Shown here: positions 1,854 to 12,440 of the stretch, one piece after another | Numbering within the stretch: position 1 is the stretch's first letter | Layout of the letters: every line of letters starts with the position of its first letter | Origin: Eledone cirrhosa | Taxonomy: Eukaryota | Direction: 5' to 3' | Length of the DNA: 64,000 nt | Assembly: GCA_964016885.1 (NCBI GenBank) | Contig: OZ024740.1 | Location: forward strand, 56,482,001-56,546,000 | Translations under genes and position numbers: made by a program | The notes under the pieces: generated by a model | Seen by the model: the letters and a program-made list of their open reading frames with translations, nothing else | The model's database searches: none | What the model was told of the DNA's origin: nothing

Positions 1854-4800
1854 GTTTTGATCAAGGGGTGGACCATGGCTGATGGGTCTCCACCAAGCAA
1901 AAAGATGGCGGAGAACCTGAAGAGCCATGGGTTTCTGAGGACCCTGGCACAGATAGAGAGAAAGAGAAAAGAAATTGAGAAGGCGTGTGTCCTCATAGCG
2001 CCACATATGGCGATGCTAAGCCGTGTCCTCAGGGAGGAGAAAACCGAAGAGAGGGATGAGGAGAAAGAGAGGGAGAAGGAAGAGGAAAAAGAAAAGGAGG
2101 AGAGCACAAGCACGGAACTGAAAGAAAATGATATACCCTCCGCTACAGGCAGGGAGGGCAGGCCGGGCAACCAACAAGCAAAGGGCAAAGGTGAAAAGCG
2201 AAATCACTTTCCGAAGGAGAACCAAGCGCAGAGGGACCAGTGGACAACTGTTCAAAAGAAGAACAGAAAGCACCGAGACACTGGGAGCAAAAAAACCCAA
2301 GTAATGTGCAAGTTTTTCAAGAACGGGACATGCTGGCATGGAGAGACAGGGATGGGATGCAGATTCGCCCACCCTAGGTCTCAAACGAACTATGCCCATC
2401 ATACTCGCGCAACATGCCCCAGCCAAAGCCGAAATAAGCCGCTCCAGAAGTATGCTGATGTCGCGCGTGCCGCACCAACAAGGAGAAGGCACGCACATGC
2501 CGACGAGATACAGATGGCAGCAGCAGATCAGAAAAATTTTTTAGTGATGGCAGAGAAGATTGTGGGACAGCTGACCTGGCTGCATCGTCTTCAGAGCCAA
2601 GGTCATCCACACCAGCACTCGAGACCACCACAGTTAAGGGACCCAGAGTGGTCGCCGCTGACACCAGACCAGGTGTCATACCGACAGCCATTACTGGCAC
2701 CCCAAAAGTCACACCAGTGCTGCTGCTGAATGTCAGAGGCCTGGTGAAACTCAGTAACATGAGTAAAATTTCCTACCTGGGAGACTTAGCCATAAGCAAT
2801 CAAGCACTATGCATGGCACTAACCGAAACGCACCTGACAGGCAGTATAGCAGATGCAGAAATACATATACCGAAATATACTGTATTTCGTTCGGACATGG
2901 TGGGGTTGCTCTGTATATCCGTGAAGATGTCACACCAATTGTACTGTTGACACATTCAAACTCAGTCTGTGACACACTGATAATACATATGAAGCAACTA
3001 CAGACAGTAATATGTGTCGCATATCGGCCGCCCGATGCCCCCAGTTATGAGGGTAAATTTGAGCATAGCCTAAGTAGGATAGAAGAGGTCCTTGACAAAC
3101 TGGACCAGGGTCTCAACATCCTACTGCTGGGAGACTTTAACCTACCAAAGGTCAAATGGCCTGAGGGCCACCTCCTACCTGTAATGACGTCAATAGAACA
3201 GAGACAGACGGAATCCCTGCTGGCCCTCACACACAGGCTGTTCATGGAGCAAGCAATACTCCTCCCAACAAGAGGCGAAAATGTCCTGGACCTCTGTTTT
3301 ACAAACAACGAAGTGCTCATCCACAATGTAAAGGTGACACCAACAATTCTCTCCGATCATAACTTAGTAGAGCTAATGATATGTGGTCCAAGAGAACCAA
3401 CAGAGACAAAACCACCAAGAAGCTCCGGGACGCTATCCAGCCTTAACTTCTACAAGGCTAACTGGAAAAAGATTAAGAGTGAAATCCGGAAGCAAACATG
3501 GAGTGAAAACACCGCCACACAAGACACTAACACACAATTTCAACACTTCATGACAACGATACACACTATATGCAAAAAGTGTGTCCCGGAGAAAGAGGCA
3601 AACAAACACAACAATCTTATTCCCAGAGATAGGAAAATCCTTATGAGACGTAGAACTAAACTCTCAAACCAGTTGAATAGTCAACAAAACAAAAACAAGA
3701 AGGAATCCTATTTGAAACGTGCACTACTTGACACCGAGATTGCACTCAAACTTTCACATGAGAACGAGAGGGCAAAGAAAGAGAACAGGGCCATAGAAAA
3801 CATTAAAACAAACCCTAAGGCCTTCTTTAAATTTGCAAAAGAAACTGCCTCAGTACACTGCAAGATTGGACCACTCTTCCACACGGACGGTTCATTAACC
3901 GAAAACCCCCAAGAGATATGTGAAATACTGAACGAACAGTACAAAAGTGTCTTCACATGTCCACTGAGGCACATGCAAATAACGAAGCCAGAGGAGTTCT
4001 TTGATGCCACAACACTACATCAAGAAATGGCAACCATCAACCACATAGACATAACGGAGGAGGATGTGGTGTACGCCATTGATGAAATTAGAACAGACTC
4101 GGCTGCTGGACCTGATGGATTCTCTTGAAAATATGTAAGCGGGCCTTAGCAACACCACTGAAGATGCTCTTCAGAAGCTCCTTGGCTAGCGGTGTACTAC
4201 CCAGGGAGCTGAAAGAAGGCACAATATGCCCTATTCATAAATGAGGTAGTAGAGCGGAGGCCAAGAACTATAGGCCAGTCTCCCTGACGTCGCATATCAG
4301 TAAGGTCATGGAGCGAGTCGTCAGAAAGAAACTAATCACTTTCCTCGAAGAAAATGACCGCCTGACTAGCACGCAACATGGCTTCCGCTCAGGAAGAAGC
4401 GGTCTTACACAGCTGCTACATCACTACGACTGGGTACTGAGACAACTACTAGACAGCTCACATGTGGACGTGATATATCTTGACTTTGCGAAGGCCTTTG
4501 ACAAGGTCGACCACGGAATGATATGTCACAAACTACACGGACTCGGCATAACTGGAAAAGTAGGTGAGTAGCTGCATGGCTCCCTAAGGGACAGAAGCCA
4601 GGCAGTCGCAGCAAATGGGTCCCTCTCGAGGGAAACACCGATAACAAGTGGGGTGCCCCAGGGGACAGTCCTGGGACCACTACTGTTTTTGGTGGATCTC
4701 TCGGACATGCCCTCTGTGGTGCATGCAACAACATCCCTCACTAGCTATGCTGATGACACTAAGGTAGCACAGGCAATCAAAAACCCGGCTGACGCTGCCC

Positions 4801-5738
4801 TTTTACAGCATGATCTGGATGCCATATACAGATGAGCGGAAGAAAACAACATGCAGTTTAATGCTGGCAAATTCCAAGCCCTACAATACAAACCTGCAAA
4901 CACAAATATAGTGGAACACAGCTACACAGGACCAGGAGGGACCGATATCCCCGTGTCAAAATCGATACGAGACCTGGGCATAGACATGAGCGATGATGCA
5001 TCTTTTTCTTCACACATCATGAAAGTGGTGACAATGTGCAGACGACTCGCTGGCTGGATCTTGAGGACTTTCCGGACAAGAGATCGAGACACCATGTTGA
5101 CACTGTGGAGGACTTTTGTCCTAAGCCGCCTGGACTACTGCTCCCAGTTGTGGTCACCCCATAGTGTCAAACTAACCACGGAGCTTGAGGCAATCCAGCG
5201 AAGCTACACCAAGAGGATTGCCAAGATGAGGGAGACAAGCTACTGGGAGAGGCTAAAGGAACTGAACCTCTACTCCTTGGAGCGAGGACGGGAGAGATAC
5301 GCAGTGATCTACATGTGGAAAATCCTGGAGGGACTAGCACCAAACTTTGGCATTGGGAGCTGGACCAACCGTCGAACAGGACGTCACTGTGTGGTGCCAA
5401 AGGTCCCGTCTTCCACATCTAGAATAAGGAGCAAGTATTGCAATAGCCTGGGATTCAAGGGCCCTCAACTCTTCAACAGGCTGCCGAGGCATCTGAGAGA
5501 CTTGCATGACGTGGAGGTGGATGTCTTTAAGAAACATCTCGACACCTTGTTATCCAGGATCCCGGATGAGCCCACAGCAAGACACGAGGGAAACCTAAGG
5601 GCAGCAGCAACAAACTCCCTCTTACACTAGTGGCCAACCTATACAGGCTGGAGATAAAATGCTTAGCAACAAGGGCGGTGCCCCAGCATGGCCTCAGCCG
5701 GATGGCTGAAACAGGTAAAAGAGTAAAGAGTAAACGAG
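1854..5738 (+). mobile_element. Near full-length CR1/Jockey-group LINE, decayed (ORF1 with CCCH zinc finger; ORF2 APE + RT)
   Basis: ORF1 carries CKFFKNGTCWHGETGMGCRFAHP. The APE has LNVRGL, LTETHL, AYRPP, LGDFN and SDHNL. The RT has QHGFR, YLDFAKAFDKV, PQGTVLGPLLF and YADDTK. The C-terminus has LDYCSQLWSP. There are several stops and frameshifts, and the 3' end is AAAGAGT repeats followed by (TA)n. Confidence 0.93.
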
Positions 5739-5929: not shown

Positions 5930-7090
5930 ATTACATGAATCAAAGTTCAGTTTAAATCATTTATTTGCTTACAATAGTTTCCTCCAAACCGTGGTTTGGA
6001 TTCTTCGGAGCAACTATTTAGTGATTTTTTACATACTTGACCTCCTTTTCAACACAAGAGACATATGAAAACATATGTATATATTGACCCACAGTGGGTT
6101 GACATCCATCATAATAGTATAGCATGGCAATTTACATACAAAGGTTACAGTCATATTAAAGGACAAATTTAAGTTAAAATTAAAATTAAAATAAAAATAA
6201 AACATTGGCAGTTTATGAAGATAAAGCAACAGGGAAGTTTAGAGTAGTCAGTGTATGAAACAGTCTCACGTGTGGCATGCACGCCTGTCTTATTTATACA
6301 GGATTATAGTGCGGCAGATTGTTACATGTAAAACAAGCAGTTAAAGCAGGCATCAATAGCATTATGGGGACTGTATTGTTAAAGCATTTTTCACACACAC
6401 TTGTACGATATATAAGCCCGTTTGTAGAGAAACACCAAATATATCAAAAATATTACAAATGAGAAGCAAAACAGCATCACTGTCCTCGCACCCACCACCA
6501 CTCACACAATCCAGGAAACGCAATTTATAGACTACATGTCCATCACACAATCCACGATGATTCAACATTGGGTGCCTCGTGAACCATGTTACAAATCATA
6601 GCTAGTCGTTCCTTAATTCGATTCATAGATCAGGTTGTTTTTGTTGTGAGAGATGACATTGTATTATATTCCGGAAGTGTGTGTGTGTTTAAGGAGAGTT
6701 AATGCGTAAGGGGAGGTAACTAGCTGATTTTCATAGTTAAAATTTATTATCCTAAAGTACATTAATGGTGTTTCAAATGAGTCCGTATCATATAAGGTTA
6801 TAAACAATTTCTAAATTTAAATATCTTATCTATGATAGACTACACTGTAATCTTATCTTGATAGACTACACTGTAATTTATAGATAAGATATTTAAATTT
6901 AGAAATTGTTTATAACCTTATATGATAGGGACTCATTTGAAACACCATTAATGTACTTTAGGATAATAAATTTTAACTGGTTGTGGAACCAACCAACCAA
7001 CCAGAAATTTATAAATGTATTATAATAAATTGAAGTGAAAATCAACTGGTGCGTGTGTTTCTTATTGGCAACATGACCCTCCCAAAGTAT

Positions 7091-7094: not shown

Positions 7095-7176
<82 letters not shown>

Positions 7177-7199
7177 TGTATATATATAAATATATGTAT

Positions 7200-10100
7200 A
7201 TCTATCTATCTAAGGCGGGTAAAATTCCCGAGATCCATGGACGAGTTCTCTCCAGCGGTCTCTGTCCCTCATTATCGCTGCCATGTCCTGCATCTCCAAC
7301 AGACCAGTGTCTGTCCTTAGGGTATCAACATACGTTAACCTTGGTCTTCCTCTTCTAGTGTGTCCAGGTAGGGGCTCCCAAAGGAGCACTGAGTGCAATG
7401 TCAACTCTGGATGTCGGTGAACCATGTCCAGCCAACCTCAGTCTCCTCTGTGTCACTTTTGACCTGACTTTTGGGATGCTCCCATACAGCTCTGAGTTTT
7501 TCATCCTCAGTGTATACTGATTAATGTTCAGAGCCATCCTCAGCATTCTCGTGTACCACCCATCCACCATCTGAGTGAGTTTCTTGGTCAGTGTCCAAGT
7601 CTCAGACCCATACAGCAGCACAGACTCCACTACAGCAATGAAGAGGCGGATTTTCAGGTCTCTACGAAGGTCCGACTTCCACACCGATCTCAAGCTGTGG
7701 CACGCCGCCCAGGCCTTGCTCTTCCTCTCAACCACATCATCTTCCGTATTCCCAATCCTTGCTCCCAAATACAGGAAGTCCTCAACCAATTCCAGCGGCT
7801 TCCCGCCTACATTAGTGATCCCCTCTGGCTTCTCAACATTCTCTACCAGATATTTTGTTCCAGTCTCATTCATTCTCAGCCCCACACCCATCGACACAGT
7901 CCCAACCTCCCGCAATCAAATCCTCTGCCTACTTCACTGTATTTGTCACCAAAACCATGTCGTCGGCAAATTCAGCATCCGATACCTTTTTCGCCCTAAC
8001 TCTCCTGCTCTGAGCCGGTGCTACAGCAAAGCCAGAGTCCTGGTGTCCCTCCAGCGCAAGGCGCATACAATAGTCCACTACGATGATAAAAAGATAGGGA
8101 GCCAATGTATCTCCCTGGAGCACTCCAGCCAGTATCTCAAAGAACTCTGTCATCCCATCAGGTGTAATGACCCGGGCTTTGGTGTTGGTGTAGAGCAGTG
8201 ATATCAGGTCCACTATCTTCTTGGGGATTCCATAAGCCTGTAAGATCTTCATCAGGCAGTAACGGTCCACAGAATCAAAGGCCTTCCTAAAGTCAATGAA
8301 AACCATGACCGTAGGAAGGCACTCTGCTCCAGCTCCTTCCAATATCCCCCCCAGCAACAGGATGTGACCGGCGGTTGATCCAACCTCTCTGAAGCCGCTC
8401 TGGTTGTCCCCGAGCTTCTTCTCCATCTCAGGCTGGATCCTGTTAAGTATCATCCTGTTGAGGGTCTTTGCCACAAGTGACGCCAGTGAGATCCCCCGGT
8501 AGTTGTTGGCGTCAGAGAGATCCCCCTTCTTTGGCACCGGGACGATGCCACTGATCCTCCACTGATTCGGGGCAACTCCCTTCTCCAGTGCCCCGCCACA
8601 GAACCCCAGGATGATATCATCAAAATCACACCTCCTCATCACTCCCGACGCCACTCCATCCTCTCCACGAGCCCCGCCCCCCTGATCCTCTTCTTGGCTC
8701 TCTGAAGCTCCTCTCTGGTGAAGGGCTCTGTCTCAACATCCAGTTCCTCAAACAGCCGCCTGATCTCCCCAGTGCTCTGGGCTGTGGAGGGTGGCTCTCC
8801 TAGTAGGGTCCTAAAATGGTCTAGCCATTTCCTCTTCCTATCCTCGGGCCCCGTTCCCTGGATCTGAATCTAACACCTTCTCTTCCTCCCTGTGATCTCG
8901 TTGATGATTATCCAGCTCTCCTTACATCCAGATCTGTCAACCGCTCTCTCCACACTTCTGATCTTCTCTATCGGTGCCTCCTCTCTGACCTCAGTGTAAG
9001 CGGTACAGAGCTCTTCCCTCATCACCTCCACAGTCTCCATCCTCTCCTCCGTAGGATCAGCATAGAATTGATCCCTGGCAGCTTTCAGGTGTTCTCTGGC
9101 TGCACACACTTTTGGGTTTGCAGAGTTGACGTGCTTCCCTTTATTCTTTTTCCTCGGCACCAGGGCTTCACTTGCTTCCGCCACTGCATTGGTAAAGTGC
9201 CCGCACCTTCTCGTCACACTCTCCCCAGTCCATCCAATCTCTCTCTCCTCTGACTCTCCACACAGAGCACTAAACCTGTTTCTCACTTCCACTGTGAACC
9301 TCTCCTGTAGCTTATCTTCCTTGAAAGCTCCCCAGTCATAGATTGTTCTCCGGGCTGAGCCTTGCTCTTTCTTAAGCTCACGCGGACCTCACTCATAACA
9401 AGCTGGTGGTCACTACCCAGTGTACTGAAATAGCTGTATGGTTCCGTGTTCAGAACACTATTCCGCCACTTTTTCCTCACCAGAATGAAATCAATCTGGG
9501 ACTTGGACAGGTGCATATCTGAGATGTAGGTCCACATCTTCCCCAGATTCTTCCTAAACCTTAGGTTGGTCGCCATCAAGTTCGCCTCCAGCAGGGTGTC
9601 TCTCAGTAGTCTTCCATTTCGGTTGGTGTTGTTATGGAAGTACCAGCAAGGATCTTCACTGCCCTCCTTACTCAGGTGTGCATTGAAGTCCCCCAAAACA
9701 AGCAGGATATTGTGTGCCTGAGTGGTGTTGACAGCTCTACACACCTCCTCATGGAACTCTTCCGCATTCACATCGCTGTCCCCTCGGTTGGACTATAGGC
9801 TGAGATGACTGTCAGTCTTGGGTTTCCATTGAAGGTCACCCTCAACACTCGCGGGGAGATAGGCATTATTTCCCTCACCAACAGATTGGTTTTTGCACTG
9901 AACACAAAACCCACTCCTCCTACTGCAGCATTTGTTGTGTTCTTCACTGCCGATGTAGTGATGAGCTGGCTCTTCTTCCCAATCATGACACTCCTCACGG
10001 GTTCATCGTTTAGAATCCTGTATTCTTGGATCGCAAGTATCTGTATACCACTCTCCTCGAACAGATGTCCCAACTCCTCTCTCTTCTCCAGCGTCCGAAT

Positions 10101-10345
10101 AGTCCTCACATTCAAAGTGCCCATTTTGATGGCTCTTCTGCAGGACAAAACTGCATTCTTTATATTTGTCTCAGAGACAGCTGATCCATCATCCACTGGC
10201 CTTCTCTGTGGCTCTAGGCCAGCAGAGTCATAACGACCAGCCTGCTCCTTGACAGTGTAATCAGGGGCTCTAACCCTAGTGCTGTTAGATCGACTCTCCA
10301 TATTTCTTTTCAATGGCTGACAATACCTTACCGGCGCCACTCGAA
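7200..10345 (-). mobile_element. RTE-clade LINE, near full-length, frameshifted
   Basis: The APE has GTLNVRT, AIQE, SAYSPT, LGDFNA and SDH. The RT has NYRGISL, FIDFRKAFDSV, GVLQGDTLAPYLF and FADD. The C-terminus has LLYGSETWTL and RGRPRLTY. It is flanked by (TA)n. Confidence 0.93.
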
Positions 10346-10347
10346 TA

Positions 10348-12440
<2,093 letters not shown>

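Follow-up and report, generated by a model that had tools for sequence, protein, structure and literature searches.

The locus analyzed here raises the question of whether a run of A-to-G changes in a genomic retrotransposon copy is the trace of RNA editing. The copy, a dead RTE-type element, lies in a stretch of 64,000 nucleotides from Eledone cirrhosa (the window). The first-pass annotation had placed it on the minus strand and proposed that a transcript hyper-edited by ADAR had been retrotransposed. The orientation was borne out, and the A>G tract is a genuine feature of the assembly. We consider it highly probable that the sense RNA was hyper-edited by ADAR while paired to antisense RNA and was then retrotransposed into the germ-line genome. 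The strand class of the changes, their 5'-neighbor signature, and their polarity relative to the element strand all support a hyper-edited and then retrotransposed transcript, in which ADAR would be the responsible enzyme.

The window copy (Table 1) is truncated inside the 5' UTR, of which ~165 nt are absent, and sits in a (TA)n tract. Its decay comprises 2 stops and 6 indel events, none of them due to A>G changes. Genome-wide exact matches to a 3' and a 5' 22-mer numbered 3,178 and 739, respectively, and the family, present in either orientation, exceeds 3,000 copies. Among 98 copies sampled by position on contig C1, 15 carried an ORF longer than 900 aa (typical length of 1031 aa), showing that the family was recently active. 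Elements of the RTE clade have no separate ORF1, a short 5' UTR, and no C-terminal CCHC knuckle. Judged by its sequence features, the family appears to have an RTE-like anatomy. The single ORF carries both the endonuclease and the reverse transcriptase (RT) (PF14529 and PF00078 were matched), a separate ORF1 is absent, and the intact copies share a short 5' UTR of ~213 nt upstream of the ATG, in which the longest frame has 59 aa (copy L116). The CCHC knuckle is absent, since the last 150 aa hold only two cysteines (899 and 917). The 3' (TAGA)n tail has the TAG stop of the ORF as its first unit, leaving the family without a 3' UTR. Most full-length copies end in (TAGA)1-4 followed by (TA)n, a microsatellite-like tail in place of poly(A), as reported for the RTE clade (PMC6007223). 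For the target-site duplication, which spans 7-15 bp in RTE elements, only a candidate of 11-14 bp can be given here, because with (TA)n targets such matches are low in complexity. The RTE-2_OV element of Octopus vulgaris, as described in PMC9115989, is also a single-ORF LINE of the RTE clade recently active in octopus. It is set apart by its description, which gives an ORF of 1109 aa together with a C2H2 finger and ~600-nt UTRs, whereas the present family has an ORF of 1031 aa and lacks a 3' UTR, its 5' UTR being ~213 nt long.

Table 1. Coordinates of the retrotransposon copy and its parts in the window
Feature	Positions	Strand	Basis or remark
RTE-type non-LTR retrotransposon copy (dead)	7200..10347	-	Family alignment; Pfam RVT_1 and Exo_endo_phos_2
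Broken single ORF	7210..10301	-	Intact sister copies have 1031 aa
Reverse transcriptase domain (limits approximate)	7830..8537	-	Aspartates of FADD and DFRKAFD unchanged
A>G hypermutated tract	7860..8690	-	38/232 A changed to G; 0/189 T>C
Dense core of the tract	8324..8682	-	Best 300 nt hold 19 A>G, against an expectation of 0.34
Apurinic-type endonuclease domain (limits approximate)	9397..10120	-	Without hypermutation
Candidate target-site duplication, beyond the 3' tail	7173..7186	.	11-14 bp, within (TA)n, low complexity
Candidate target-site duplication, 5' junction	10345..10358	.	Overlaps the element end by 3 nt

Several features of the family and of the surrounding DNA were observed along the way. 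Inversion of the 5' part was very common, affecting 31 of 79 copies when sampling was anchored at the 3' end and 25 of 98 when it was anchored at the 5' end, which is consistent with twin priming. Tracts of (TA)n flank most copies, often on both sides (at the window insertion, 7096-7200 and 10348-10402), which suggests that TA microsatellites either serve the family as targets or are seeded by it. A degenerate relative with 72-80% identity (L184-L200; C9:18148, C7:21009, C8:18824, C13:39804) recurs in near-identical form on many chromosomes, with several copies less than 40 kb from a contig start, and is possibly a subtelomeric repeat. In the window, the RTE copy is adjoined by another LINE (2767-5720, plus strand), different from it and likewise broken, which retains traces of endonuclease and RT and appears CR1/Jockey-like by its motifs. 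Long inverted-repeat elements lie on either side of the insertion (6720-6980 and 10351-11450), the right one being found again at 21555-22196. Another broken endonuclease/RT element of different sequence occupies 26518-29413 on the minus strand.

The hypermutation had originally been placed at 7800 to 9300. Clustered A>G changes are indeed present there, in a narrower tract with its own dense core (Table 1). Compared with the majority of 29 sister copies picked by similarity, the window copy differed on the sense strand by 49 A>G changes but only 3 T>C over ~3 kb. The test was redone with 98 copies picked by an anchor outside the tract. In this comparison, 41 of the 232 majority A positions of the tract were G. 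Three of these, at the tract edge (8661, 8682, and 8688), are subfamily variants shared with other copies, which leaves 38, against no T>C and 3 G>A among 243 G (binomial P = 2e-10 and 3e-9, respectively). The excess of A>G over both classes on the element strand is thus present, and the G residues are not the family consensus; the proposal thereby withstood both of the outcomes that would have refuted it. Outside the tract, 5 of 673 A were changed (odds ratio of 26; P = 9e-19, with tract limits set after the data were seen). No second copy of the window haplotype was found in searches with its edited parts (the best other matches had 94%, 94%, 87-89%, and 85% identity), pointing to a single event and not to a subfamily. 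The sense G>A clusters expected of APOBEC-type DNA editing were not seen, with 3 G>A changes in the tract and no passing G>A cluster in the scan of 305 copies described below.

Within the tract, A>G affects 34 codons, 26 of them nonsynonymously. Of 25 codons tested against 120 homologs (the shared variant at codon 540 was excluded), 11 had the change at positions with 94-100% conservation, such as N571, R643, R653, and K816. The catalytic aspartates of the RT were spared. The residues expected at the altered positions had first been taken from motifs of the clade. Ten of the twelve proved to be the family majority (R633, N637, R643, T646, S647, R653, R654, T609, T761, and I784), while the two in "GFTITP" did not, the family having GFTVAP.

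An ADAR origin predicts a particular neighborhood of the changed adenosines. In the window copy, 7 of 91 A that follow G were changed, compared with 27 of 131 that follow other bases (P = 0.008). The depletion of upstream G was found separately in four other clustered copies, which formed the pooled set (a fifth, L355, was found later and left out). In this set, the changed fraction by 5' neighbor was 46/130 for A, 18/50 for T, 17/126 for C, and 16/237 for G, i.e., rates of 0.35, 0.36, 0.13, and 0.07 (P = 6e-13; G versus the rest, P = 9e-10). For L025 alone, with 9 sites, the context was not significant (P = 0.38). The downstream side gave a different result. The initial impression that many of the changed A precede G was not supported by the counts (15 of 73 with G as the next base versus 19 of 149 with any other, P = 0.16), and enrichment of 3' G was significant neither in the window nor in the pooled clusters (P = 0.43). 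The pooled 3' rates of 0.19 for A, 0.20 for C, 0.19 for G, and 0.10 for T (P = 0.09) favor neither G nor A. Porath et al. (PMC5625713) reported upstream-G depletion in all animals and a reduced downstream-G preference in octopus. The clusters, with upstream-G depletion and without downstream-G preference, fit this invertebrate motif.

To assess recurrence, 305 copies were scanned, each against its nearest neighbors and its own background, for clustering in four substitution classes, A>G, T>C, G>A, and C>T (1,220 tests, Bonferroni correction). Recognized duplicates were excluded (repeat fetches, 12 of the 13 copies carried by a C12 tandem array, and 16 of the 17 loci of a more distant family), as were the ADAR loci. 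Six copies (the window copy, L355, L173, L025, L012, and L142) had clusters that passed correction, all of them sense A>G; no T>C, G>A, or C>T cluster passed among the 305 copies. Of the six, L173, L025, and L142 are on the plus strand of their contigs and the other three (the window copy, L012, and L355) on the minus strand, indicating that cluster polarity follows the sense strand of the element and not that of the contig. Since L173 and L142 were retrieved by edited queries, they were not counted for polarity; L012, L025, and L355 have no cluster site in common with the query that retrieved them. Over whole copies, rare A>G versus T>C changes numbered 86 versus 4 in L173, 12 versus 0 in L025, 8 versus 1 in L012, 10 versus 0 in L142, and 13 versus 0 in L355. 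L173 belongs to an older age layer than L025, L012, and L355. The window copy and L142 share 3 sites, with different sites interleaved, and their clusters appear independent on this pattern. Recurrence of sites between edited copies, as expected of hot spots, was not significant (P = 0.07-0.5 and P = 0.41). Among the 177 copies sampled purely by position, no cluster was found (0/177, upper 95% bound of 1.7%). A looser rule (at least 5 changes in 300 nt with 70% purity) was discarded: among 231 copies, it flagged 10 G>A and 2 C>T clusters versus 2 A>G, and the G>A and C>T clusters vanish when the background of each copy is used.

The four G of L142 at 8512-8549 recur in 13 copies of the C12 tandem array, which argues that the clustered G are real, replicated DNA. 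These 13 copies, which have their A>G cluster in common (L142-L153 and L155), lie at G000:C12:17.0-17.47 Mb with spacings of ~26-94 kb; 8 of them are almost full length, and the other 5 are shorter as well as inverted.

Outside the clusters, the unflagged copies show a diffuse excess of sense A>G over T>C (0.0053 versus 0.0036 per eligible base, 1.5x). In the singletons of 57 young copies, this excess reaches 2.3x, with no clustering and no avoidance of 5' G (35 of 72 changes follow G). A low-level input of ADAR across the whole family was not supported on these grounds, and the diffuse excess is probably a separate, non-ADAR bias related to the RT.

This bias bears on the explanation that the clusters are error bursts of the element's own RT (e.g., at low dTTP), which would place C opposite A in runs. 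Such errors would likewise be specific for the sense strand, and the diffuse excess shows that sense A>G changes can arise with no ADAR context. It is precisely the context that separates the two, since the clusters strongly avoid A after G and the diffuse changes do not. In addition, hypermutation by pool imbalance favors the products of G:T wobble (G>A and U>C) over A:C mispairs. Error bursts are therefore very unlikely in our view. Deamination of adenine in DNA, within the RNA:DNA hybrid at insertion or in a later R-loop, by ADAR acting on hybrids or by an ADAT-like enzyme, has precedents: ADARs edit DNA in hybrids in vitro (PMC12925331), and amphioxus ADAT2 was reported to deaminate DNA (PMC10354150). 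Nevertheless, a first-strand cDNA target would leave T>C on the sense strand, contrary to the class observed, so that the change must have preceded reverse transcription. R-loops formed after insertion should affect either strand, yet T>C clusters number 0 in 305 copies. We regard this route as extremely unlikely.

An artefact of assembly or polishing, for instance by edited cDNA reads, would be suggested by the absence of the window haplotype from the contigs of the three deepest runs. In these contigs (X1-X3, one sample), the window allele was absent at 8510, 8538, 8549, 8596, 8597, and 8635. However, the paired G alleles at 8548/8549 of the 13 C12 array copies were absent as well, implying that these runs do not represent the rare haplotypes of the assembly. 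Six separate loci that follow the orientation of the element, one of them amplified in a tandem array after editing, also speak against an artefact, which we find highly unlikely. Other reads add little: the RAD run X24 had almost no depth over the window tract, and places with A>G/T>C relative to an intact copy numbered 43/32 in contigs of X5 and 46/36 in those of X19 (both runs of uncertain kind), and 53/30 in X1, contigs being prone to drop rare variants. Finally, the G-rich tract could stem from a distinct subfamily or from gene conversion with a diverged relative, as the three shared variants at the tract edge might indicate. A diverged donor would bring all substitution classes in both directions, whereas here a haplotype without a second copy carries changes that destroy residues invariant in 120 homologs. 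This explanation, already largely refuted, has a next to negligible probability.

Hyper-editing of the sense RNA followed by retrotransposition, the reading that we prefer, would have proceeded as follows. Part of one transcript would have paired with the antisense RNA of another copy, in trans or beside the source locus, to form a long duplex. Such an antisense partner from a different copy is probable, because the longest self-complementary match of the element is 15 bp, with no internal hairpin, and the window holds no second copy. Antisense copies of the family are abundant in the genome; a source locus with an inverted neighbor was not found in the immediate surroundings of the close relatives retrieved. 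ADAR would then have deaminated ~16% of the adenosines in the duplex part, and the RT would have read inosine mainly as G. Such reading is established chemistry, the pairing preference of inosine being for C (PMC10877575). Target-primed insertion into the (TA)n tract would have fixed the G, after which the copy would have decayed. From its 24 further rare substitutions, besides the A>G cluster, and its indels, we infer that the window copy has resided in the germ line. Since many near-invariant RT residues were edited, the RT encoded by the edited RNA was probably defective. The inserting protein may thus have come from another RNA, or have been made before editing; by the same residues, the edited RNA was probably mobilized in trans or edited after its translation.

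The host has the enzymes that this would require. The A_deamin domain gave twelve matches at four places in the genome. The gene on C6 is ADAR2, 95% identical to an Octopus vulgaris protein, so the premise of a cephalopod editing background holds. The gene at C1:146.46 Mb is presumably ADAR1-like, going by a motif. Further adenosine-deaminase loci were observed at G000:C25:17.35 Mb (L133) and C1:320.7 Mb (L132), which may be ADAR-like, ADAD, or ADAT1. Widespread editing of repeats has been described in coleoids (PMC9068888).

Related phenomena are known from other systems. ADAR-type A-to-G hypermutation was described in avian retroviruses (Rous-associated virus as well as avian leukosis virus; PMC12925331, citing Felder 1994 and Hajjar and Linial 1995) and in HTLV-2/STLV-3. 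As in our element, clustered sense A>G changes were ascribed to ADAR acting on RNA and were recorded via reverse transcription. However, those are exogenous LTR retroviruses of infected cells, with an inverted repeat or U3 as the edited site, whereas ours is an endogenous, target-primed non-LTR element without an internal inverted repeat, fixed in the genome at several ages. APOBEC editing of the DNA of LTR retrotransposons has been fixed in vertebrate genomes (PMC4866542, PMC2873906). In both cases, a retroelement hypermutated by a deaminase still integrates, with strand-biased clusters, a neighbor motif, and damage to the ORF. The APOBEC changes are sense G>A, made by C-to-U deamination of the cDNA of vertebrate LTR elements, while ours are A>G changes on the RNA of an invertebrate LINE. 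In the APOBEC screen, invertebrates served as negative controls and LINEs were not targeted (PMC4866542), which may bear on novelty.

ADAR hyper-editing of repeat-derived dsRNA is found in metazoans and is very high in octopus (PMC5625713, PMC9068888). It resembles the clusters in density, upstream-G depletion, weak downstream-G preference, and the use of repeats as substrate; there, the changes are differences between RNA and DNA, whereas ours are in the genome sequence itself. In human cells, where ADAR1 also acts on a LINE, L1 RNA was reported as unedited and its restriction as independent of editing (PMC5224506). This rested on bulk Sanger sequencing of >2.5 kb of L1 RNA, an assay that editing in at most ~1% of insertions, as here, would escape. 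A 2016 review called the roles of ADAR editing in retrotransposon subfamily evolution and mutational suppression undetermined, with reference to Alu (PMC4982230), and the accessible portions of PMC5974252, PMC9148063, and PMC7827607 treat the editing of repeat RNA only. In the literature covered, which comprised few subscription papers, no account of LINE copies with ADAR-type clusters in a genome was found.

At the level of the genome, the effect is small, with at most ~2% of copies concerned and a window haplotype that left no progeny. If the reading is true, genomic ADAR-type clusters would show directly that LINE RNA enters the germ-line genome after being edited. They would make three matters testable by sequence: the ADAR editing of retrotransposon RNA in germ cells, the mobilization in trans of damaged RNA by RTE proteins, and a change over time in the neighbor preference of ADAR (by comparing L173 with the younger L025, L012, and L355). 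The chances seem to us evenly divided on the broader proposition, namely, that ADAR acts on the LINEs of octopods as a mutagenic equivalent of APOBEC. On that proposition, RNA with a crippled RT-coding sequence would still be inserted, in trans or through editing that comes after translation, and its edits would be repeatedly heritable and open to amplification (as in the C12 array with its 13 copies), so that the activity and specificity of ADAR in the germ line would leave a dated record.
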